A stretch of DNA of 64,000 nucleotides, from assembly GCA_963422735.1 (NCBI GenBank), contig OY730476.1, positions 4,192,001 through 4,256,000 of the forward strand. The letters run 5' to 3'. The translations under genes and the position numbers were made by a program. The notes under the pieces are model-generated. The model did no database searches. It had not been told where the DNA came from and saw nothing but the letters and a program-made list of their open reading frames with translations. Positions 3,090 to 62,096 of the stretch are shown piece after piece (position 1 is the stretch's first letter; the number at the start of each line of letters is the position of its first letter). The DNA comes from Candidatus Latescibacterota bacterium. Lineage in GTDB: Bacteria > Latescibacterota > UBA2968 > UBA8231.

Positions 3090-3344
3090 TTGGCCAAGTT
3101 GAGTACGATACAGAAGTGGGGAAATAGCCAAGGGCTTAGGTTGGCGAAGGCGATTCTCCAAGAAGCGCAGCTAAATGTGGGCGACGAAGTGGATATTTCC
3201 ATCGAAAACGGGCGAATTATAATTGAGCCTACGACTAAAGTTCGCGGGAGATATGATTTGCAGGAGTTGCTGTCAAAGATGCCCAAAGAGTACCGAGTTG
3301 AAGAACTGGATTGGGGCGGACCTATTGGGAAAGAAGTCTGGTAA
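3090..3344 (+). CDS. mazE: AbrB/MazE family antitoxin
   Basis: IQKWGNSQGLRL AbrB motif; C-terminal DWGGPIGKEVW. Confidence 0.92.
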   Translation: MAKLSTIQKWGNSQGLRLAKAILQEAQLNVGDEVDISIENGRIIIEPTTKVRGRYDLQELLSKMPKEYRVEELDWGGPIGKEVW

Positions 3345-3692
3345 ATGCCCCGTTATATTCCGCAGAAAGGGGACTTCGTGATTTTGACGTTTGATCCACA
3401 GGCGGGACACGAGCAAAAAGGGCGTCGCCCCGCATTGGTAATCAGCAACACGCTATTCAACAGGCACACCGGACTTGCTATGGTGTGCCCGATAACTAAG
3501 ACAAAAAGGAATATCCCCTTTCACGTGGAAGTTCCAAGCCAATCACCCCTTACAGGGTATATCATGGTCGAACAGATCAAATCCGTCGGTTACGCAAGCC
3601 GCAAAGTAAAGTTCGTTGGGAGAGCCTCTGGATCCATTCTCGACGAAGTTTTAAGCCTTCTAGACGCCTGCCTATACAATCCGGTCCAATAA
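3345..3692 (+). CDS. mazF: PemK/MazF family endoribonuclease toxin
   Basis: FDPQAGHEQKGRRPALVIS and CPIT motifs; abuts mazE. Confidence 0.93.
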   Translation: MPRYIPQKGDFVILTFDPQAGHEQKGRRPALVISNTLFNRHTGLAMVCPITKTKRNIPFHVEVPSQSPLTGYIMVEQIKSVGYASRKVKFVGRASGSILDEVLSLLDACLYNPVQ

Positions 3693-15362: not shown

Positions 15363-16031
15363 TTAATCCAGCAACTCGATCTGCTGTTGTGCGCTCAGCC
15401 GCTGGGCACACAACAGCAGATCGCCGCGCTCTACCCTGATCTCGACCGGGTTGGCGACCACCTCGTTGGAGATGCCGTCGCGCACGCCCGGAATGAGGCT
15501 TTCGCACCGCAAGGGCCATTTTAATCCAAACGTCTCAATACCCTCGGCCGCGCCGTCGAGTGGGCACAGGGAAATTTTCTGGCCAAGGGCGGCGCGGAAG
15601 CGGATGCAGCGGTCGATGAGGCGGATGTCGCAGTAGTCGTCCACGAGGCGCAAGGCGAGGCGGTCGGCAAAAGTCTTGAGCAGACTCAAGTTGCCCAGCA
15701 GGTGATCGGTACGCCGTCCCGTAAAACCGAGAAGGATGGCTTGAGTAACGCCCAAGGCGGCAGCGTGGTTGAGGACCTTTTGACCATCCGTGCCCACATC
15801 GCCCTCGGGGTCAACGAGGATGACGCGGTCGGCGGCGAGGGCGGCCTTGCTTTGGCGGCTGACCGAGTCGAGGTCGCCGACGACGTAATCGGGCGCGTAC
15901 CCGTACGCCGAGGTGGTATTGGCTCCGCCATCGGCGCACAGAATCAGCTCGGCTTCCCGAGCGCAGGCGGCAAATAATGCTCGGGAAGGTGGCTCGCCGT
16001 TGCCGACGATCAGAGCAGACCGACCGCCCAC
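15363..16031 (-). CDS. thiN: Thiamine diphosphokinase
   Basis: CADGGAN, GDLDS, GRRTDHLLGN, GLKWPL, GISN. Confidence 0.9.
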   Translation of the reverse strand: MGGRSALIVGNGEPPSRALFAACAREAELILCADGGANTTSAYGYAPDYVVGDLDSVSRQSKAALAADRVILVDPEGDVGTDGQKVLNHAAALGVTQAILLGFTGRRTDHLLGNLSLLKTFADRLALRLVDDYCDIRLIDRCIRFRAALGQKISLCPLDGAAEGIETFGLKWPLRCESLIPGVRDGISNEVVANPVEIRVERGDLLLCAQRLSAQQQIELLD

Positions 16032-16035
16032 GGCT

Positions 16036-18390
16036 TCAGTTTCCCAAGGAAGAAAACCGCGTCGTCAGCCGCAGGCCAATCTGGCGCGGATCGCCGTAGC
16101 TTTTGTAGAGCTTCTTGTCGTAGTTGGGCGGCTCGAGGCGAAAAAAGAAGCCTCTCACCGCGTAGCGCTGATCGAGAAGGTTGCGGCTCCATAGCTGCAT
16201 GGACCATGTATCCCAGTGGTAGGAAATATGGCCATTGACCAATCGGTAAGGCTTTGAGACTTGGTCGTGGCTATCCGAAAAGAAGAACCGATCCATGCCT
16301 ACCACCTCCCAACGCCCTCCTATGCCCGACCGGTGGCGATACTCGCCCCCCAAGCTGAAGGTGTATTCTGGCGCGTGGGCCGCGGCCCGGTCTCCTCGCG
16401 TCTCAGGTCCTTTATCGGTCTCGAAGGTATAGGGATCCACATGGGTTTTCAGGTATCCCAGCGAGCCGAACAGATGCACTCCGGACAGCGGCCGGTAGCT
16501 CTGTTCTAGCTCAATACCGCTGCTTTGTCCCCTAGAGGCATTGTCTATGAAGAAAGAGAAACTATTGGGATCGTCGGGATTCTGCTGCCTAGACAGGCTG
16601 ACCTGCTGGTCGAAACGCAGGGTGTGGAAAAGCGTCAGCGCGGTCCCCCCCCCCCGAAAACCCATTTCGAGATTGGTGGTGTACTCTGGATCAAAGGGCC
16701 GGTCGCGATCGCTCAGACGCGGGTCCTGATTCACGCCGCCGGCTCGGTAGCCCCGCGAAACAGCACCATAGATGCTCCCGCTAGGAGCAAATCGGTAGGT
16801 CAGAGCGAGTTTGCCGCCTGCCAGCCACTGGGCTACATCGAATCCTACGCTATGTTCGTTCTCTGTGACACCTTGGTAAGAAGTTGAGTTGTGGTCCAGA
16901 CGAAGATTGAAAGCCAACTTCACAGCGTCGCCTAGATCCCGGCTGTACTGACCGTAGAATGCCAAGTTGTCCACCTCAAAAGTGCTGTTGTGATCAATGG
17001 GGATAGAGCTGTCAAACACCCAGCTAGTGGCATCGTCCGACTCTCTGAGGGCTTTGAAGTATGTCCCTACAATGGCCTTTCCATTGCCGCCCAGAGCACT
17101 CTTGAGCAGGCGCACCTCCTCGGTGAAGGTCGTGCGCTTTCTGAGGGTTCGGTCGAAGAAGTCATTGGTCCATCCATCCTGCTCGGGATCTAGGTTGTAG
17201 GGTTCCCGACGCCAGTACTCTTCGTCGTTGCCCCAATCGCCGTCAAAGCTATACTCCAAGTCGGTCTCCGAATAGGCCGTGGTCGAGACTAGGTCCAACC
17301 CCAAACCTTCAAGGGGGACCTCTCCCTTGAGAGAGAAGGCGGTGGTCTCTTGGTGATCCTTGCCTGGATTGTCGGAATGGGTGATCAGCTCCTCGTTGTT
17401 GTCGTGGGCCCAGGCATCGTAGCCATTGTTCAGGTTGGCGCGAAAAAAAGTGCCCAGTAGCTGCAGGCCGCTGTCGAGAGTGTAGCGCACTTTGGCACGG
17501 GCGAAGTTTTCCCACCGACGGTTAGAGTCGTCTCTATCCAGAAACATATTGCTTCTGAAGCCATTGGACCTAGCTTCGTGGTAGCCGGCGCGAATAGCCA
17601 GTTGCTCATTCAGCGGCACATTGACGGTAGCGGCGGCGTGCAATAGGTCGTCGCTACCCCGGGACACGGTGACCCCGTGGCTAGGGAGCGGAGATGGATC
17701 AGTCGACTGCAGGCTGATCAGGCCGGCCATGGCGTTGGGTCCGAAGATGGTCGATTGCGGCCCTTTGAAAACTTCGACCCGATCTAGGTCGAACAGTACC
17801 CCGGCCGTGCCCAAGCCGCTCAGATCCACGCCATCGAGGACAAAGCCGACCAAGAAATTGGGCGGCTTTTCGCCAGCGAAGTGGCTGTTTTCCCCCATGC
17901 CTCTGATCTGGAAATAGCGAGGCCGGGACGTGCCGCCAGACCAGTTGAGATTGGGCACGGCTGAGGTCAAGCTCTGAAAGTGGTGGCCGTTGGTCTCTTG
18001 CAGGCGGTTCCTGTCCAGCACGGTGATGCTAGCCGCTGCCTCGCTCAGGGTCTCTTCTACGAGCCCCCCCTCGACGATGATCTCTGGTGCTTTTAGGAGC
18101 TTGGGATGCAGGCGAATTACAAAGGATTCTGTTGTCGGCAACAGGCGCACCGTCTCGTACCCAACATGGGAAATAGTGAGCGAATCACCGAGAGACACCC
18201 TCGAGACAAAGCGGCCTTGGGCGTCCGTAGTGGTAACCCTATCCCCGGCCTGCACATTGGCCCCTTCCAAGGGGCGACCCGTAGCCGCATCCAACACTTG
18301 GCCGGGCACCTCCTCGGCCTGTGCCACAGACAGCACCGACAGCATCAATAAACCGGCCAGCAAGCTAGCCGACGGCAGTGAAATTTTCAT
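16036..18390 (-). CDS. TonB-dependent receptor, probably thiamine uptake
   Basis: Signal peptide, plug (SRPRYFQIRG, VEVFKGPQ), C-terminal NLLD..Y/GDPRQIG; downstream of a TPP riboswitch. Confidence 0.9.
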   Translation of the reverse strand: MKISLPSASLLAGLLMLSVLSVAQAEEVPGQVLDAATGRPLEGANVQAGDRVTTTDAQGRFVSRVSLGDSLTISHVGYETVRLLPTTESFVIRLHPKLLKAPEIIVEGGLVEETLSEAAASITVLDRNRLQETNGHHFQSLTSAVPNLNWSGGTSRPRYFQIRGMGENSHFAGEKPPNFLVGFVLDGVDLSGLGTAGVLFDLDRVEVFKGPQSTIFGPNAMAGLISLQSTDPSPLPSHGVTVSRGSDDLLHAAATVNVPLNEQLAIRAGYHEARSNGFRSNMFLDRDDSNRRWENFARAKVRYTLDSGLQLLGTFFRANLNNGYDAWAHDNNEELITHSDNPGKDHQETTAFSLKGEVPLEGLGLDLVSTTAYSETDLEYSFDGDWGNDEEYWRREPYNLDPEQDGWTNDFFDRTLRKRTTFTEEVRLLKSALGGNGKAIVGTYFKALRESDDATSWVFDSSIPIDHNSTFEVDNLAFYGQYSRDLGDAVKLAFNLRLDHNSTSYQGVTENEHSVGFDVAQWLAGGKLALTYRFAPSGSIYGAVSRGYRAGGVNQDPRLSDRDRPFDPEYTTNLEMGFRGGGTALTLFHTLRFDQQVSLSRQQNPDDPNSFSFFIDNASRGQSSGIELEQSYRPLSGVHLFGSLGYLKTHVDPYTFETDKGPETRGDRAAAHAPEYTFSLGGEYRHRSGIGGRWEVVGMDRFFFSDSHDQVSKPYRLVNGHISYHWDTWSMQLWSRNLLDQRYAVRGFFFRLEPPNYDKKLYKSYGDPRQIGLRLTTRFSSLGN

Positions 18391-18440
18391 AGATCTGCTC
18401 CTTTGTCTTGCATTTGCGGAGAAATTCCGTCGAGGGCGCA

Positions 18441-18476
18441 CAAAAAAACCGCTCGCCCCAGATGGGCCAGCGGTGC
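18441..18476 (-). terminator. Intrinsic terminator of the riboswitch expression platform
   Basis: Minus strand accgct-ggcccatctggggcg-agcggt followed by a T run. Confidence 0.65.
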
Positions 18477-18493
18477 GTACGCAGTGCGTACGA

Positions 18494-18580
18494 CATCCGT
18501 TTCCCTACGCTGGCACGATCCAGTTCAGGTTAGAAGGGTCTCAATTCTCAGGCCCGCTGCCGGGCCACCCCCAACGGAAG
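18494..18580 (-). promoter_or_regulatory. TPP riboswitch
   Basis: Minus strand GGGGTG...CTGAGA...ACCCTT.TAACCTGA.CTGGAT..TGCCAGCGTAGGGAA, matching the THI-box consensus. Confidence 0.93.
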
Positions 18581-18700
18581 CTATATTCTCAATGTCTCTA
18601 CAATATAGGCTAAACCCCACCCGGGTCAATGTACGCCCATCACCTCGCCCTGTAAGAAAAAGGCGGCGCGACTTTCGCTGGGAGCCGCCAAGGATTTAGG

Positions 18701-24530: not shown

Positions 24531-26063
24531 GTGTCCATGACGACTGCATCGGCCCGGCCAGCGTTTGACGACGCCCTCCGGCACTACGCCGCAACGCTCG
24601 GCTTCCCATCCCTTTCGAGCTATGTCATCTGGTGCCGCAAAAACGACCTAGCGGTCCAGCGCGGCAAAACCGAGAACCAGCTCGCAATCGAGCGTCAACT
24701 CGCCGCCGACACCTTGCGGCCGGCCGCGCCGCACCCCGGCCGCAGCCACACCCCGGGACGCGCCCGCCTCATTGACCGGGCCTTCCGCGGCGAGATCCCT
24801 CCAGATGAGAGGTATCCGTTCAGCCAGAAGCTGGTCGCGCTCTTCGCCGCGGCCGAAGAGCCCAAGCACCGTCAAGCTCTCTACCGCCTGCTCAAGCACA
24901 TAGAGCGACGCGCCGACCTTCTCGGCCTCAAAACGGGATTCCTCAATCGGCCGCGCGAAGAGGGCAACAACTACGAGGACGCCCTTGGTCAACTCGCCCG
25001 CCACTACGGCGACTGGCTCCGGCCCGTCGAGGAATGGCGCACCGACCTCCTCAGCCCTCGGGCGCAGTTCCGCAGCCTCACTCGGCATCTGCTGGCCCGC
25101 TACGAGGTGCCGCCTTTTATGGACACCGCCTTTCTCCAAGGAGACCTTTCGACGGCGCACCGCGAGCAGGAGTGGTTCAAGCACATCGGCATCGGCCAGA
25201 ACATCCGCAAGGCCGACCTGCCGCTGCGGCTGACCAAGCGCATGGCACACCTTTTTCCCACCGCCAATCGACACTGGCCGATTTCGCGCACCCTGCGCTG
25301 GGCGCAATTCGCCGGCATGGGTGGACGCGGACGCACTAGTTGGGCTGTTTTATCCACGCGGCTGAAGAACTACCAGCGAGACGAGCCGTTCTGGGAAACG
25401 GCGATGCTCTTTTTTGCCAACCAACCCATGCTGGAACCCACCTACATCGGCCCAATTGTCGATTATATCCACTACCAGAAATTCGTGCCCCAGCAATTGC
25501 CCGGCCCCAACGGCCAGTTCATTGAGGGGCCGCCGGCTCAGCCTAACTTCTCGATGAAAGGCCGCAGCATCACCAAGCTGCTGCGTTTAGTTGATGAGTG
25601 GCACGGCGACCTCAATGCCGACGACTACGCCCTCGGCGAGGAAGAGGCGTGGGCGGCGTCTGGCTTTCGCGGATTCGAGTGGGAGGAAGAAGACGCATTC
25701 TCGGGCGAGCGCGTGCTTTGGTCAATACGCGAGTTATGCTCCGCGCTCGACCTGCTAGCCGAGGGGCGCGTCATGCACCACTGCGCCGCCTCGTATGCCC
25801 GGCGCTGCTCGGAGGGCGAGCGGTCCGTGTGGTCGATGCAGATGACCTACCCGGCCAAGCTGCCGCAGCGGATCCTGACCATTGCCCTCGACAACCACAA
25901 GAAGACTGTCGTCGATTATCGGGGGAAGTACAACATGCACCCCCACGACAACAAGCGCACCGCCAAAAAGCATTGGCAGGATCGGCCCTATCTCTATTAT
26001 CTGCGGCAATCGCCGCGCGTCTTGCGCTTGTGGATGGAACGCGAGGATCTGCGGCACGACTAG
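24531..26063 (+). CDS. PcfJ domain-containing protein
   Basis: FSMKGRS...WH; EL.S..DL.AEG..MHHCAASY...C. Confidence 0.8.
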   Translation: MSMTTASARPAFDDALRHYAATLGFPSLSSYVIWCRKNDLAVQRGKTENQLAIERQLAADTLRPAAPHPGRSHTPGRARLIDRAFRGEIPPDERYPFSQKLVALFAAAEEPKHRQALYRLLKHIERRADLLGLKTGFLNRPREEGNNYEDALGQLARHYGDWLRPVEEWRTDLLSPRAQFRSLTRHLLARYEVPPFMDTAFLQGDLSTAHREQEWFKHIGIGQNIRKADLPLRLTKRMAHLFPTANRHWPISRTLRWAQFAGMGGRGRTSWAVLSTRLKNYQRDEPFWETAMLFFANQPMLEPTYIGPIVDYIHYQKFVPQQLPGPNGQFIEGPPAQPNFSMKGRSITKLLRLVDEWHGDLNADDYALGEEEAWAASGFRGFEWEEEDAFSGERVLWSIRELCSALDLLAEGRVMHHCAASYARRCSEGERSVWSMQMTYPAKLPQRILTIALDNHKKTVVDYRGKYNMHPHDNKRTAKKHWQDRPYLYYLRQSPRVLRLWMEREDLRHD

Positions 26064-26110
26064 CGAGGTGGTAGGCGCAGGTGATCGCAGGAGTTGGGAG
26101 GAAGGGTAGG

Positions 26111-26800
26111 CTACAAGGATCCTTTAAACAGGATTGTGCCCATGGTGGATAACCAGCTAACTAGTACGATGCCGATGGTCCAGCGGAAATAGACACCAAG
26201 CTTGTCGTGGAAGTCGCGCACGGTCGCGTCGTACTTATTTTGCAGATTGCGCTCTGACGCGTCGATTTTTTCGTGAAGCGTTTGAGCCGAGGTGTCAATC
26301 TTCCCATCGAGCGTTTGAAACGCCGCCTCCTGCTTCCCATCGAGCATTTGAAACGCCGCCTCCTGCTTCCCATCGAGCGTTTGAAACGAGGTGTCAATCT
26401 TCCCATCAAGCGTTTGAGCCGACGCGTCGATTTTTTCGTGAAGCGTCTGAGCCGAGGTGTCGATCTTCTCATGGAGAGCCTGAGCCGCCGCCTCCTGCTT
26501 TCCGTCGAGCGTTTGAAACGCCGCCTCCTGCTTCCCATCGAGCATTTGAAACGCCGCCTCCTGCTTCCCATCGAGCGTTTGAAACGAGGTGTCAATCTTC
26601 CCATCAAGCGTTTGAGCCGACGCGTCGATTTTTTCGTGAAGCGTCTGAGCCGAGGTGTCGATCTTCTCATGGAGAGCCTGGGCCGACACATCTAGCTTCT
26701 CACCGACGGCTCGCACGTCGCTCTCAATCAGCTCCAAGCGGCGGTTGATCTGCTGCAACACGTCGCGGGTGGTTATCTCAGATGTTTCAGGGGTCATCAC
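26111..26800 (-). CDS. Membrane-anchored coiled-coil protein with 11-aa repeats (DUF1640/CCDC90-like architecture)
   Basis: 11-residue repeats of type AQTLHEKIDAS/FQTLDGKQEAA; C-terminal TM FRWTIGIVLVSWL. Confidence 0.75.
   Translation of the reverse strand: MMTPETSEITTRDVLQQINRRLELIESDVRAVGEKLDVSAQALHEKIDTSAQTLHEKIDASAQTLDGKIDTSFQTLDGKQEAAFQMLDGKQEAAFQTLDGKQEAAAQALHEKIDTSAQTLHEKIDASAQTLDGKIDTSFQTLDGKQEAAFQMLDGKQEAAFQTLDGKIDTSAQTLHEKIDASERNLQNKYDATVRDFHDKLGVYFRWTIGIVLVSWLSTMGTILFKGSL
26260..26685. repeat. 33-bp tandem repeats with a 198-bp higher-order duplication inside the CDS
   Basis: Block AQALHEKIDTS...FQTLDGK occurs twice at 66-aa spacing with near-identical DNA. Confidence 0.85.
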
Positions 26801-26995: not shown

Positions 26996-28039
26996 ATGAC
27001 AACAACCTTTCGCATCGGCGTCACCCGCGACTTTCTCAAGGCCGACGGGACCCTCGGCTTCGGCGATATTGGTCTCGACCTGCTCGACGAGTTCCCAAAG
27101 GTAGAGTGGGGGTTTTTAGCGGAAAACACCACCGAACTGCGCCCCGACCAGATCCGCAGCTATGACGGCTTGTTGGTTCTCGCCTCGATAGTTAGTGCCG
27201 AGACCTTGCAGGGAGCGGACAAGCTAGCACTCGTCGCCCGCTTCGGCGTCGGCTACGACAGCGTTGACGTCGCAGCTTGCAATGAGCAGGGCGTGCTTTT
27301 GACGATTACTCCCGACGGTGTGCGCCGGCCAGTGGCGGTCATGGCTCTGACGTACCTCTTGGCTCTCAGTCACAAGATGCTGGCCAAGGACCGCTTGGTG
27401 CGCGAGGGTCGCTGGCATGAGCGCCTCGATTATATGGGCATGGGCGTCACTGGCCGCACACTGGGGCTGGTCGGCCTAGGCAACATCGGTCGCGAGATCT
27501 GCACCTTAGCCAAGCCCTTCGGCATTCGCTGCATTGCCGCCGATCCTTTCGTCGATGCTGCCGAGGCTCGCGCCGCTGGTGCCGAACTGGTTGAACTCGA
27601 CCAGTTGCTGCAACGCGCAGACTACGTCTGCATCTGCTGCGCGCTCACTGAGGAGACCCATCACTTCATCGGCGAGCGCGAGCTCTCACTGATGAAGGAA
27701 AGTGCCTACCTCATCAACACGGCCCGCGGCCCCATCGTCGATCAGCAGGCCCTTACCCGCGTCCTCCAACGGGGGCAGATCGCCGGTGCCGGCCTCGATG
27801 TCTTTGAAACAGAGCCTGTACCTCAGGACGAGCCTGTGCTGGCACTCGCCGACCAAACCATCGTCGCCCCGCACGGACTTTGCTGGACCGACGAATGCTT
27901 CCGCCTCATCGGCCGCAGTGCCTGCCGCAGCCTCATCGAGGTGGCCTCCGGTCGCCTGCCCCAGCACCTCGTCAACCCCCAGGCTGCTGAGCACCCCCGT
28001 CTCAAAGAAAAACTGAACCGCTATCGAGCTATCGGATGA
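26996..28039 (+). CDS. D-isomer-specific 2-hydroxyacid dehydrogenase
   Basis: GVGYD, GLGNIG, INTARG, GLDVFE.EP, APH. Confidence 0.9.
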   Translation: MTTTFRIGVTRDFLKADGTLGFGDIGLDLLDEFPKVEWGFLAENTTELRPDQIRSYDGLLVLASIVSAETLQGADKLALVARFGVGYDSVDVAACNEQGVLLTITPDGVRRPVAVMALTYLLALSHKMLAKDRLVREGRWHERLDYMGMGVTGRTLGLVGLGNIGREICTLAKPFGIRCIAADPFVDAAEARAAGAELVELDQLLQRADYVCICCALTEETHHFIGERELSLMKESAYLINTARGPIVDQQALTRVLQRGQIAGAGLDVFETEPVPQDEPVLALADQTIVAPHGLCWTDECFRLIGRSACRSLIEVASGRLPQHLVNPQAAEHPRLKEKLNRYRAIG

Positions 28040-28818: not shown

Positions 28819-28868
28819 TCGAAAGGGCCTGCCGGGTAGGGCAGGCTATCCAGCAAAAGGTATATAAA

Positions 28869-29452
28869 ATGGGCGCAAGTTCTATGTGCGACCTACGCCT
28901 TTTTATAAATAGCTTGTACCCCGGTATTAACTCGGTTGCGCTGAGTGCATCTCCCCCTCTAACAGGCCATTAAGTTCTTGGAAGAGACCGCTGCGAGATT
29001 CCTGCATATTTCTGAGTTTTTCGAGTTCCTCATTTATCTCCGCAATTTATCGCAATGGAGTCCAACTGCGTGGGCGGCTTCATCAAATCCCGCCCGCACA
29101 GCCACCCGGCTATCGCGTAAATCCTGTTCCAGCTTGGGCGCATCAGTCGAGGTACGTCGAAAGTTCGCCCAACATAGGAACCTCCTCTGCTTTACTGACG
29201 AGCAGGTCGTCCCCTGTCTCTTTGCCTATAGCTACAAGCGAGATCATAGGACAGTGCCCTTCGGCGAACGCTCTCATAGATCGCTAGGGCTAATTGAGTA
29301 CTAAGTGGAGTTCTTCGGGATCTCAGGTACTGCTGCCATGAAGCTCCTCAAGTGCTTGGCCAATGACACCGCTCCACCGCTCATGGCGTGTCCACGCGGA
29401 AAAGGGAATAAACTCAAGGATTGCCACGGTCCAAAGCTCGACGGACTCAGTT
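28869..29452 (+). pseudogene. Decayed prokaryotic E2-like protein with C-terminal SEC-C motif (CBASS type II-short E2-like)
   Basis: LYPG..., VVPCLFAYSYK...PFGERSH..LGLIEY* then CPRGKGNKLKDCHG; internal stops; lower GC. Confidence 0.5.
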
Positions 29453-29455
29453 TGA

Positions 29456-29624
29456 TCAGTGGCCAGGGGTCAGGGGTCAGGGGTCAGTCCCATCCGCCCC
29501 CTTGGCGGCGGGTCCCGGAACATCGACGCGGGGGACCGCGCTGGCCCGGACGAGGGCGACGGGCCAGCCGAGTGAGACCGCCTACATGAAACCGGAATCC
29601 CCAACCGCACACTAGGAAATTCCG
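29456..29624 (-). repeat. Dispersed structured non-coding element, copy A, with (T/C)CAG(G/T)GG heptamer array
   Basis: High identity to 61215-61404; heptamer units at 29456-29490. Confidence 0.8.
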
Positions 29625-29718
29625 AAAAATTCTACTAGGAGACGTGTCAAAAGACGGAAGAGAGACCGCCGCTAAACAACGTCATAAGAGCAATTCCGTT
29701 ACAGACTTTTGGGGGTTA

Positions 29719-51863: not shown

Positions 51864-52721
51864 GTGATGGCTCTTTTATTGATTGCGCTCTTGACTCTGC
51901 CGACGGCACTCGCCGCCGTCGGCCTACCCTCGCTGCTCCAAGGCGGCCAGGCCCGCGCCGCGGGCCTGGCCGGCGCGGAGACTGCCCTGTTCGCCGCTCA
52001 AGCCCTCAACCCGGCAGCCCGACAATCGCGTGGGCGCAGCGTCGCCTTTAACCACCAAGCCTCGATCCAGAATATCCGCCAGAACTACTTGCACCTGACG
52101 CAGGGCCGCGGCCGCGGCACTTGGGGGCTTTCCGCCCAACTGTGGCAGGCCGACGGCCTAGAGCGCCGCACCGGGCCCTCGGCTGAGCCGCTGGGGCACT
52201 TCGGCGTGTACGAGGGCGCGGCTGGCCTAAGCTACGCCCGCCAGATGGAGCGGACGCGCCTCGGCTTGCAGCTAAAATTCATCCGCCAATCCATTTTTAC
52301 CCAAAACGCCAGCGGCCTAGCCGCTGATCTCGGGCTGATGTGCGATGTCTCAGCCAGCTTGCGCTTGGGGGCCACGGTGCGCAACTTGGGCCGCATGAAC
52401 CGCCTCGACCGACGGGAGACGGACCTGCCTTTAGAAGCTCGTTTAGGCACCGCTTATGTAGGCCGCGCAGACATGCTCGTGGCCATCGAAGCGCAAAAGG
52501 CTCGCGGCGGCGACCTCACGCTGCATCTGGGCGGTGAGTACCAGGCCGGCGATCATCTGCGCCTGCGCGCGGGCTACCAGAGCACTGAAAACCGCAGCCT
52601 CTCGGCCGGGCTGGGCCTCGTGGCTAAGCACTGGGTCATCGACTACGCCTATGTGCCTTTTGGATCGGGCTTGGGCGATGCGCACTGGCTCAGTCTCCAA
52701 CTAGAAAGCGCAACCCCTTGA
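51864..52721 (+). CDS. PorV/PorQ-like outer membrane beta-barrel (second)
   Basis: ARAAGLAGA, NPA, AADLG, NLG, LRAGY, IDYAYVPF..LG..H. Confidence 0.78.
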   Translation: MMALLLIALLTLPTALAAVGLPSLLQGGQARAAGLAGAETALFAAQALNPAARQSRGRSVAFNHQASIQNIRQNYLHLTQGRGRGTWGLSAQLWQADGLERRTGPSAEPLGHFGVYEGAAGLSYARQMERTRLGLQLKFIRQSIFTQNASGLAADLGLMCDVSASLRLGATVRNLGRMNRLDRRETDLPLEARLGTAYVGRADMLVAIEAQKARGGDLTLHLGGEYQAGDHLRLRAGYQSTENRSLSAGLGLVAKHWVIDYAYVPFGSGLGDAHWLSLQLESATP

Positions 52722-59325: not shown

Positions 59326-60248
59326 TGAGGCTCGCGTTTATGGGAACCCCTCGCTTTGCGGTTCCTTCCTTAAAAGCCCTCGCCCAGAGCCGCCACCAGA
59401 TCGTCGCCGTCGTCACCAATCCCAACCGACCCCAAGGGCGGGGCCGCCAGCTCGCAAGCCCACCCGTCAAAGAGCAAGCCCTAAAGCTCGGCTTAGAAGT
59501 GCTGCAACCGGCCGCGGTCAAAGACCCAGCGCTAGCCGCGACGCTAGCTGCGCGTACGCCCGACCTCTTTGTCGTCGTCGCCTTCTCCATCCTGCCCCGT
59601 CTCTTACTCGCCATTCCCCGCCTCGGCTCAATCAACCTGCATCCCTCGCTCTTGCCAGCCTATCGCGGCGCGGCCCCTATTATCTGGGCGGTAGCCAACG
59701 GCGAGAAGGAGACGGGCATCACCACCTTCCAACTCAGCCCGCGCATTGACGCGGGTCACATCCTACTCCAGCGCCGCTTTGCCATTGACTGCGACGAGAC
59801 GGCCGGCGAGCTGGAGGCCCGCTTGTGCATGGAGGGTGCCAAAATGGTCGTGGAGACCGTTGATGGGCTGGAAGATGGCCGCCTCACCGGACGGCCTCAA
59901 GGTACGGACGGCGTCAGTCGGGCACCCAAGCTGACCAAAGAGGACGGCCAGATTGACTGGCACCAACCAGCCGAGCGGGTACGCAACCTCGTCCGCGGCA
60001 TGAATCCCGCGCCTGGTGCCCATACCCAATGGCAGGACAAAACGCTCAAAGTACACCGGACTCAGCACACTGCGGGCTGCGGCGCACCCGGCACCGTACT
60101 CTGCGCCGATGGCCGCCGAGGTTTAATAGTGGCATGCGGCGAGGGTGCCCTGCAACTGACCCAAGTACAACCGGCGGGCAAAGCCGCCATGGAGGGAACG
60201 GCCTTTGTGCGGGGCTACCCGATTGCGGCTGGCATGCGGCTGGGCTAA
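59325..60248 (+). CDS. fmt: Methionyl-tRNA formyltransferase
   Basis: FMGTP.FA, NLHPSLLP.YRGAAPI, DAG. Confidence 0.96.
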   Translation: MRLAFMGTPRFAVPSLKALAQSRHQIVAVVTNPNRPQGRGRQLASPPVKEQALKLGLEVLQPAAVKDPALAATLAARTPDLFVVVAFSILPRLLLAIPRLGSINLHPSLLPAYRGAAPIIWAVANGEKETGITTFQLSPRIDAGHILLQRRFAIDCDETAGELEARLCMEGAKMVVETVDGLEDGRLTGRPQGTDGVSRAPKLTKEDGQIDWHQPAERVRNLVRGMNPAPGAHTQWQDKTLKVHRTQHTAGCGAPGTVLCADGRRGLIVACGEGALQLTQVQPAGKAAMEGTAFVRGYPIAAGMRLG

Positions 60249-60696
60249 CCTACTCTTCGCCCTGCTCGCGGGGCGACCGGCCTATGCCACAGAGGTAGAG
60301 ACCGATTCGACTCGCACCGACACCCTGCCTTCGGCGCATGGTGCGCTCCTGCGCTCGGCCGTGCTGCCCGGCTGGGGCCAGTACTACAATGGCCGCCCCG
60401 TCAAGGGGCTGTTCTTAGGTGCAGCAAGCGCAACAGCCCTCACCGCAGTCGTGGTCGAGCATCGCCGCATCCGTTCCGCGCCCACGCCCGAGGAACACCA
60501 AGACCGCACCGCCCGCCGCAACAGTCGCCTGCTGTGCTTCGCGTTCTCGGTCGCCTTGGCCGCGATCGACGCCTATGTCGATGCCCACCTCGCGGACTTT
60601 GGTGCCGTGCTGCCCGGCCTCAGTATTGGGGCCGAGATGCAAGTGGAGATGCAGCGCGGCAAAGCGTGGCTTTGGTTGAAAGCAACCGTGCCTTAG
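60205..60696 (+). CDS. DUF5683-like membrane protein (start uncertain)
   Basis: SAVLPGWGQYYN and IDAYVDAHL.DF. Confidence 0.75.
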   Translation: MCGATRLRLACGWANLLFALLAGRPAYATEVETDSTRTDTLPSAHGALLRSAVLPGWGQYYNGRPVKGLFLGAASATALTAVVVEHRRIRSAPTPEEHQDRTARRNSRLLCFAFSVALAAIDAYVDAHLADFGAVLPGLSIGAEMQVEMQRGKAWLWLKATVP

Positions 60697-61046: not shown

Positions 61047-61214
61047 ATCACTCTCGGCCTCACGCCTAAATATCTGATACGCGGCCCGTTGGCTCAAGCT
61101 CATTTCCCAACTGCTAACAGGAATGAGATGCTTGCTTAATTGGCCCAAAAAATCTATTTGAAGTGAACGCAGCCTCTTTGAAGGACGGACTTTCCTAGAA
61201 TAAGGACTGTTTAA

Positions 61215-61404
61215 TTAGTGGTTAGTGGTTAGTGGTTAGTGGTTAGTGGTCCGTCCTATCCGGCCCCTTGGCGGCGGGTACCCGGCGACTGGCCTCGGAA
61301 CATCGACGCGGGGAACCACGCTGGTCCGGACGAGGGCTACGGGCAGGCCGAGTGAAACCGCCTACATGAAACCGGAATGCCCAACCGTAAACTAGGAAAT
61401 TCCG
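61215..61404 (-). repeat. Dispersed structured non-coding element, copy B, with (TTAGTGG)5 array
   Basis: Five perfect TTAGTGG units at 61215-61249, then a body matching 29484-29624. Confidence 0.8.
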
Positions 61405-61416
61405 TTGAAGGATACC

Positions 61417-61968
61417 ATGAAAAATCGCCCTTGTACTGTACTTCTCCTCGCCGCGTTGTTTGCTTCCTGTGGCACCGATTCAACCAAAAGCCCTAACGCG
61501 AATCCACCGATACTCTCAGCCCAGCTCGACGGCCGCTACGCGCAAAATATTCGCATTGAGGAGGACCAATTCACGGCTACTGGCCCCGGTCAAGAGGTCG
61601 TCCTCACCTTTGCGGCCCAGGGTATGGTAAACGTCAAACAGTTTGAGTTGCACTTAGAGATCGAGCCGGCCAGTGCCTTGGCTTTTGAAGGTTCTTCTTT
61701 CGCCGCGACCGAGCCCTTTCTCACCCCGCCCCTCAGCATTGAGCTGATGGGAGCGGGGCTGTGGCGCACCGGCGGCGCGAGCATCAGCCAAACCAAAAAG
61801 GGCGACGATATCCTAGGGACGCTCACGTTGAGGACCGGCGACGACTTCGCCGCGGGAATGCAAGTGCAAGTGCGCGTGGCCTTCTTTTCGCTAGGACCCA
61901 GTTTTTCCGACCGCGACGACTACGCGGCCGCCGACCTCAACATGGGGGTGGTGATTAACGGCAGCTAA
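61417..61968 (+). CDS. Putative lipoprotein (beta-sandwich, cohesin-like suspected)
   Basis: LFASC lipobox; beta-rich sequence. Confidence 0.65.
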   Translation: MKNRPCTVLLLAALFASCGTDSTKSPNANPPILSAQLDGRYAQNIRIEEDQFTATGPGQEVVLTFAAQGMVNVKQFELHLEIEPASALAFEGSSFAATEPFLTPPLSIELMGAGLWRTGGASISQTKKGDDILGTLTLRTGDDFAAGMQVQVRVAFFSLGPSFSDRDDYAAADLNMGVVINGS

Positions 61969-62020: not shown

Positions 62021-62096
62021 GGGGCTGTAGCTCAGTTGGGAGAGCGCCTGAATGGCATTCAGGAGGTCAGGGGTTCGATTCCCCTCAGCTCCACCA
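62021..62096 (+). tRNA. tRNA-Ala (GGC)
   Basis: GGGGCTGTAGCTCAGTTGGGAGAGC...anticodon GGC...GGTTCGATTCC...CCA. Confidence 0.97.

Follow-up and report, generated by a model that had tools for sequence, protein, structure and literature searches.

The MITEs of bacteria are defined, in the review by Delihas (2011, PMC3184786), as elements shorter than about 400 bp which possess TIRs, are bounded by target duplications, carry no transposase and often adopt a stem-loop. According to a second article, MITEs are typically described as AT-rich (PMC4596501). That article deals with BrickBuilt of Porphyromonas gingivalis (Klein et al. 2015, PMC4596501), a MITE in which an internal tandem array is placed between a leader and a tail with inverted-repeat ends. 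As described there, its 23-nt unit is present in 1 to 22.8 copies, the repeat number and the imperfections of the repeats vary from copy to copy, 8 of the 19 copies lack the leader, the tail or both, and the TIRs resemble those of the IS5-family ISPg elements (PMC4596501). The BOX elements of Streptococcus pneumoniae are also named in the review (Delihas 2011, PMC3184786).

The present analysis concerns two similar sequences, hereafter referred to as copy A and copy B, which lie in the same orientation and 32 kb apart within the window, i.e. the whole stretch of 64 kb of DNA that was analysed. The pair is very probably a MITE with an internal heptamer microsatellite, of which B is an intact and A a decayed copy. 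The preliminary description of this DNA had put the pair forward as a candidate new system; its anatomy fits the published definition of MITEs, and a MITE with an internal microsatellite is an ordinary kind of mobile DNA and not a new system.

With MITE families such as Correia of Neisseria and RUP of Streptococcus pneumoniae (PMC3184786), the element shares its small size, TIRs, a target-site duplication flanking copy B, the lack of a transposase gene, an intergenic location and a fold in which the ends pair. It is GC-rich, in contrast to the typical AT-rich MITEs, and is likened to the MITE families by its anatomy alone. The likeness to BrickBuilt, which is a comparison of architecture alone, lies in an array enclosed in a MITE, in the variation of the unit between copies and in a one-sided truncation (copy A); the two hosts probably belong to the same broad group. 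The present element differs from BrickBuilt in its 7-nt unit, in the presence of 4.6-5.1 copies of this unit, in a non-repetitive body much larger than the array and in ends for which no matching IS is known. With BrickBuilt as a precedent, a microsatellite-bearing bacterial MITE thus already has a published parallel.

BOX elements resemble the present element in being non-autonomous dispersed repeats with an internal module in variable number. The boxB module is about 45 nt long, whereas the internal unit here is a heptamer, and the ends of the two are different. REP/RAYT elements and the IS200/IS605-derived PATEs are likewise short, non-coding, dispersed and potentially hairpin-forming; these families are not known to possess TIRs or target-site duplications, unlike copy B, in which both are present.

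The shared body and the ends of copy B

Alignment of the two bodies yields a block of 109 nt with 90.8% identity (E 7e-35) and a second block of 32 nt with 90.6% identity, between which 14 nt are missing from copy A. The preliminary description had recognised the two same-orientation copies, the shorter body of copy A (by about 14 nt) and the abutment of both bodies on a 7-nt tandem array at the same position; the alignment bears out the first two of these observations and Tandem Repeats Finder the third. The body is GC-rich, and a 22-mer and an 18-mer taken from it match the 64-kb window at copies A and B only, with up to 3 mismatches permitted. The similarity between the copies stops at the right edge (ATTCCG) and the flanks of the two are unrelated. 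Therefore, a segmental duplication was rejected as the origin of the pair.

Copy B (61186-61404, plus strand, 219 bp) is composed of a left TIR, a short spacer, the heptamer array, the GC-rich body and a right TIR. Its boundaries were set by the inverted repeat together with a flanking 8-bp direct repeat, and the homology between A and B, an independent criterion, stops at the same right boundary. The left TIR occupies 61186-61205 (plus strand), with the core CGGACTTTCCTAG at 61186-61198, and the right TIR occupies 61385-61404 (minus strand), with the core CGGAATTTCCTAG at 61392-61404 as read on the minus strand. The two cores match at 12 of 13 positions, while the complete inverted-repeat arms (61185-61205 and 61385-61405) are 21 nt long and 81% complementary (17/21). 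The target-site duplication TTGAAGGA, identical at 8/8 positions, is found on the left at 61178-61185, where it abuts the left arm, and on the right at 61405-61412, where it ends 4 nt before the ATG at 61417. Inverted repeats and a target duplication had not been evident in the preliminary description; copy B carries the former as 21-nt arms and the latter as a perfect 8-bp repeat. The earlier view of a dispersed, mobile and non-coding element is upheld.

The whole window was scanned for elements of 60-3000 bp with an 8/8 flanking repeat and termini that match in inverted orientation at 12/13 positions or more, and exactly one site, namely copy B, was obtained. The same configuration was found in 2 of 367 windows simulated with a first-order Markov model. 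With a looser threshold of 11/13, a site was present in 19 of 200 simulated windows; an extra site in the actual window at this threshold (59029/60794) spans housekeeping genes and was rejected as a chance occurrence. These figures bear on the possibility that A and B are the leftover ends of a larger IS, transposon or prophage, or products of recombination, with the TIR and the 8-mer of copy B being coincidental. Such an origin could draw on the fact that only two copies are known, one of which (A) has neither a TIR pair nor a duplication, and that the parent element is not found in the window. It would, however, leave to coincidence a joint occurrence of TIR and duplication that simulated windows seldom produce and that falls exactly on the boundary of homology, and the homology does not reach into either flank; such a fragment is very unlikely. 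The interpretation as a MITE has limits of its own in that the TIR pair and the duplication are both present in one of the two copies (B only), and the length of the duplication, 8 bp, is likewise known from one intact copy only (B).

At 219 bp for copy B and about 176 bp for copy A, the element falls within the size range of MITEs (about 50-400 bp, up to 1000 bp), with a copy number of two in the 64-kb window. All six frames of the element carry stops, in keeping with the lack of a transposase, and the 14-nt indel between A and B shifts the reading frame. A 51-aa plus-frame peptide, when compared by HMMER with 1.84 billion representatives, gave 2 matches, both of which are translated tandem repeats, and a 53-aa minus-strand open frame had no match among the proteins of 29-93 aa that were searched; peptides from three of the six frames yielded no true relatives. 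Stops in all the frames, the frame-shifting indel and the lack of true relatives of the peptides together indicate that the element is non-coding. The body was also considered as the remnant of a transposase C-terminus, since the high-GC3 plus frame, which encodes the 51-aa peptide, stops inside the right TIR; this was rejected because the peptide has no supporting relatives.

The TIRs and the 8-bp duplication of copy B point to transposition of the DDE-transposase cut-and-paste type. Duplications of 8 bp are made by several IS families, and the sequence of the TIRs did not point to a particular one of them. The element would be a non-coding IS derivative of about 219 bp which keeps only the two ends recognised by a DDE-type transposase. 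Judging from the anatomy, a transposase encoded elsewhere in the genome would bind the TIRs of 13-21 nt and excise or copy the element, and insertion would take place at staggered cuts 8 bp apart, the repair of which would give rise to the flanking 8-bp duplication. Copy B would then represent an insertion between divergent genes that has stayed intact, and copy A an older one, within a small SEC-C-motif gene and near the 3' end of that gene.

Copy B is located in a divergent intergenic region, separated by the duplicated 8-mer and 4 nt from the ATG at 61417. The ORF starting there is lipoprotein-like, with a signal/lipobox-like N-terminus, and copy B now constitutes most of the leader/promoter region of this gene. 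Just to the left of copy B, at 61154-61183, is a pair of 10-mers, CTATTTGAAG and CTCTTTGAAG, which are 20 nt apart and the second of which extends into the left target duplication; these motifs may have belonged originally to the promoter region of the divergent genes. About 600 nt downstream of copy B, a tRNA-Ala (GGC) gene (62021-62096, plus strand) separates the lipoprotein-like gene from an Mfd-like ORF, with no sign of a link to the element.

Copy A and the broken SEC-C-motif gene

Copy A (29449-29624, plus strand, about 176 bp) was delimited by local alignment to copy B; the region is a convergent one, and the gene within which the copy lies is broken. At its left end, 18-24 nt of outer sequence are gone, including the whole 13-nt core of the left TIR; in the local alignment, the outer 18 nt of copy B (61186-61203) have no counterpart in copy A, and the breakpoint is placed somewhere in 29443-29451. 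On the right, the TIR at 29612-29624 is preserved without a mismatch. The 8-mers which flank copy A, AAGCTCGA and AAAAATTC, match at 2 of 8 positions, without duplication. An alternative alignment that keeps CGGACT as the terminus of copy A needs two deletions and is less parsimonious, and the left TIR is not intact under either alignment. A distant candidate for the left TIR at 27874-27886 (2 mismatches) lies inside a dehydrogenase gene, has a mismatched flank and was rejected as a chance match.

A small SEC-C-motif gene is cut short at the left edge of copy A, and its 5' part (48 codons; 29305-29448, plus strand) is left. The open frame from 29305 reads through the element to 29589 (94 aa), and a search of 5.8 billion protein clusters with this ORF identified two relatives, P0001 (100 aa) and P0002 (104 aa), which have an overall identity of 84% to each other. 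Residues 1-48 of the ORF are 73% identical to P0001 and 70% identical to P0002 (tblastn E 2.7e-19), and the left edge of copy A, at 29448, is where the homology ends; the remaining 52 conserved residues of the relatives are encoded nowhere in the window. Since residues 1-48 are homologous to these proteins and the rest comes from the element, the ORF at 29305-29589 is a chimeric pseudogene, in which a truncated SEC-C-motif gene is joined to transposon sequence. The uninterrupted gene is known from the protein level only, through the relatives of 100-104 aa. Both relatives contain a SEC-C-like motif, CPCGGGRKLRDCHG, at sub-threshold values (Pfam E 0.0045 and 0.019), and a Pfam scan of the 94-aa ORF gave no family. 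The gene in the window reads CPRG where the relatives have CPCG, with one SEC-C cysteine thus lost.

On the other side of copy A, a candidate 3' remnant of the SEC-C-motif gene is found at 29625-29675 (plus strand), with a K/R-rich tail, KNSTRRRVKRRKRDRR, followed by a stop. The right flank of copy A and the basic tail of the relatives are similar in composition, and the match is not significant (E 1.5; E 6.9); these letters are suggestive only of what may be the 3' remnant. In the simplest model, a single later deletion would have removed the left end of copy A (18-24 nt) together with the left duplication and some 35 codons of the SEC-C-motif gene; a deletion of 14 nt is present within the element as well.

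The region upstream of the truncated gene (28822-29304, about 480 nt) has a lower GC content (0.48-0.55) and looks decayed. It holds a 108-aa frame without a family match; the stop of this frame and the GVG... start at 29305 are directly in frame.

The heptamer arrays and the proposed RNA fold

Tandem Repeats Finder reported three rows of period 7 in the 64 kb, of which the arrays of copies A and B, with scores of 50 and 72, are the only ones to score at least 50, the third being a trifle of 2.1 copies. The array of copy B (61215-61250, plus strand) has five TTAGTGG units (5.1 copies, 100% matches), while that of copy A (29456-29487, plus strand) reads TCAGTGG, CCAGGGG, TCAGGGG, TCAGGGG, TCAG (4.6 copies of TCAGGGG, 88% matches). 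Between the two arrays, positions 2 and 5 of the unit have changed in concert, and the first unit of copy A is intermediate between the two unit types. The arrays have near-equal unit numbers. They occupy the same internal position, which implies that the ancestral element already carried an array; as judged from A and B, they turn over faster than the body.

The repeats had been regarded in the preliminary description as a 3' tail. The array of copy B begins 29 nt inside the left end of the element and is bounded by the TIR, and the sequence that precedes the array is common to both copies (GTTTGA in A, GTTTAA in B). The shared pre-array sequence and the TIR outside the array thus make the array internal and not a terminal tail. 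This position bears directly on the earlier proposal that the element is retro-mobilised (SINE-like) or HUH/ssDNA-mobilised (IS200/IS605-PATE or REP/RAYT-like), with a tail made at each insertion. An array unit that differs between the copies and is homogeneous within each would agree with such a mechanism, and target duplications are also left by retroposition, but the array of A and that of B are both enclosed in the element, with TIR or spacer sequence between them and the left end. Moreover, a 12/13 TIR with an 8-bp duplication is not known as a product of IS200/IS605 or REP elements and would not be expected of a SINE-like retroelement, and RT, HUH/Y1 and RAYT domains are absent from the 65 ORFs scanned. 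Mobilisation of this kind is largely refuted and retains hardly any probability. The accompanying claim that the tail is generated or homogenised per copy survives in so far as the array of each copy is homogeneous in its unit; it fails in that the array, being internal in both copies, was not added at insertion.

The homogeneity of the array in each copy is adequately explained by microsatellite slippage or by different source copies. Under the interpretation as a MITE, the 7-nt array would be an internal microsatellite of the ancestral element, the unit of which would have drifted in concert in each lineage, either through slippage and unit turnover or through descent from different source copies.

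A comparison of copy B with plasmids and phages (blastn, distant mode) matched the heptamer array only. Arrays of TTAGTGG were found at 24 places in the Pseudoalteromonas donghaensis plasmid NZ_CP032091.1 and also in the Fischerella plasmid AP018300.1, in each case without the body or the TIRs. Since the matches are confined to the array (query positions 18-65), they constitute a simple-repeat resemblance and not homology. The plasmid arrays are like those of A and B in consisting of 7-nt units in tandem in intergenic DNA, and filamentous cyanobacteria carry heptanucleotide STRR arrays, which are also 7-nt tandem units in intergenic DNA. In NZ_CP032091.1, a perfect intergenic array of about 27 TTAGTGG units is followed by a motif of about 40 nt repeated twice, and the arrays of this plasmid may be a repeat family of their own, unrelated to the body studied here.

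Another reading takes A and B for paralogous structured non-coding RNA genes (a minus-strand sRNA or a plus-strand cis-acting leader), with the array as a module for protein binding or as a tail. The conservation of the body at about 91% and the position of copy B, which is immediately followed by a plus-strand gene start, are compatible with such genes. The contexts of the two copies are, however, inconsistent, A being in a broken gene and a convergent region and B in a divergent one, and scans for promoters and terminators in the surroundings of A and B did not exceed the expectation from shuffles, with no promoter-like or terminator-like site bracketing the copies consistently. The element had not been recognised earlier as an Rfam family, and indeed no family matched it at the gathering threshold when the whole window was searched; with E up to 10 at both loci, a single snoRNA hit at the level of noise (E=8.4) was obtained.

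The folding results are of the same tenor. The preliminary description had proposed a strand-specific fold, and most of the pairs in its helices 1 and 2 can form in A as well as in B (97% of cells); the fold energies, however, are no better than those of dinucleotide shuffles. The z-scores of the body on the two strands are +0.63 and +0.38 for copy B and +0.23 and -1.01 for copy A, and those of the whole copy B, in which the TIRs pair, are -0.81 and -1.38. Folds of the whole element do close in a terminal stem, but this stem is simply the TIR. Among the proposed helices, ACUCGGC/GCCGGGU is lost in copy A, where its 3' arm is missing and 7/7 pairs are gapped, and CCGGUUUC/GGGGCCGG has one uncompensated mismatch in the same copy. 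Covariation, which had been suggested as a check, was assessed with RNAalifold on A and B only, and compensatory pairs numbered 0/41 on the minus strand and 0/31 on the plus strand, two sequences having little power in this respect; the structures obtained differ from those proposed earlier. When the three long-stem helices of the preliminary description were counted on the alignment of A and B, 0/20 pairs were compensated, again from two sequences. Given this little power, the results fail to support a conserved RNA structure but do not disprove one. Taken with the inconsistent contexts, they leave a pair of structured RNA genes most improbable.

Search for relatives, neighbourhood and significance

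A Pfam search of the 65 window ORFs of at least 80 aa revealed no transposase, reverse-transcriptase, HUH/Y1 or RAYT domains; a linked RT or HUH/RAYT gene, as suggested in the preliminary description, is thus not among these ORFs. That description had also named the combination of TIRs with a DDE transposase as a finding that would speak against its proposal, and one half of this combination has come to light, the TIRs having been found and the transposase not having been found in the window. The window is otherwise ordinary chromosome, with SecA, a riboflavin operon, TGT, YajC and Mfd-like domains. It contains no third TIR core beyond one match with 2 mismatches, against 2.34 expected by chance.

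Beyond the window, the GTDB representative genomes were scanned with one exact 19-mer, a scan which misses copies with one mismatch in the 19-mer, and the 5 loci obtained are all chance matches that share only 19-32 nt. Searches of the literature with the array and TIR strings returned only unrelated primer or vertebrate sequences. The element family looks rare in public data.

Several other features of the window were observed. A TPP riboswitch (18485-18582, minus strand, 67.5 bits) is located upstream of a TonB-dependent receptor ORF (16036-18441, minus strand), after which comes a thiamine pyrophosphokinase gene (15363-16031, minus strand), and 15363-18582 looks like a riboswitch-controlled unit for thiamine uptake and salvage. 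An ORF at 26111-26800 (minus strand), which matches CTD11 of ABC-3C systems and an apolipoprotein-like repeat, contains an in-frame tandem repeat at 26256-26686 with a 33-nt period and a 198-nt higher-order unit (98% matches); it adjoins a PcfJ-like ORF (24531-26063, plus strand), and the region 24531-26800 may constitute a small island of accessory or defence genes. An adjacent pair of a MazE-like antitoxin and a PemK/MazF-like toxin is encoded at 3090-3692 (plus strand), and ORFs of the PorV/PorQ family (type IX secretion, T9SS) and with DUF5683 are found at 51864-52721 and 60205-60696 (both plus strand). These two ORFs point to a host in the Bacteroidota/FCB group; the GC content is 0.60.

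Copy B ends 12 nt upstream of the start codon of the lipoprotein-like gene, and a function for the element could be envisaged in this setting. The MITE might serve as a portable hypermutable cassette, the array of which changes its length by slippage near the start of the lipoprotein gene and thereby tunes or switches the expression of this surface-protein gene, or else the body might be a functional RNA; both are improbable. If the former were true, the element would spread ready-made contingency loci around the genome.

The finding matters little beyond annotation, where it removes a false lead for a new system, marks a pseudogene at 29305-29589 and draws attention to the leader/promoter of the lipoprotein-like gene at 61417, which an insertion has remodelled. 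An element of this kind, a bacterial MITE with a microsatellite, is a minor curiosity and would become interesting only if the length of the array were to control the neighbouring genes.
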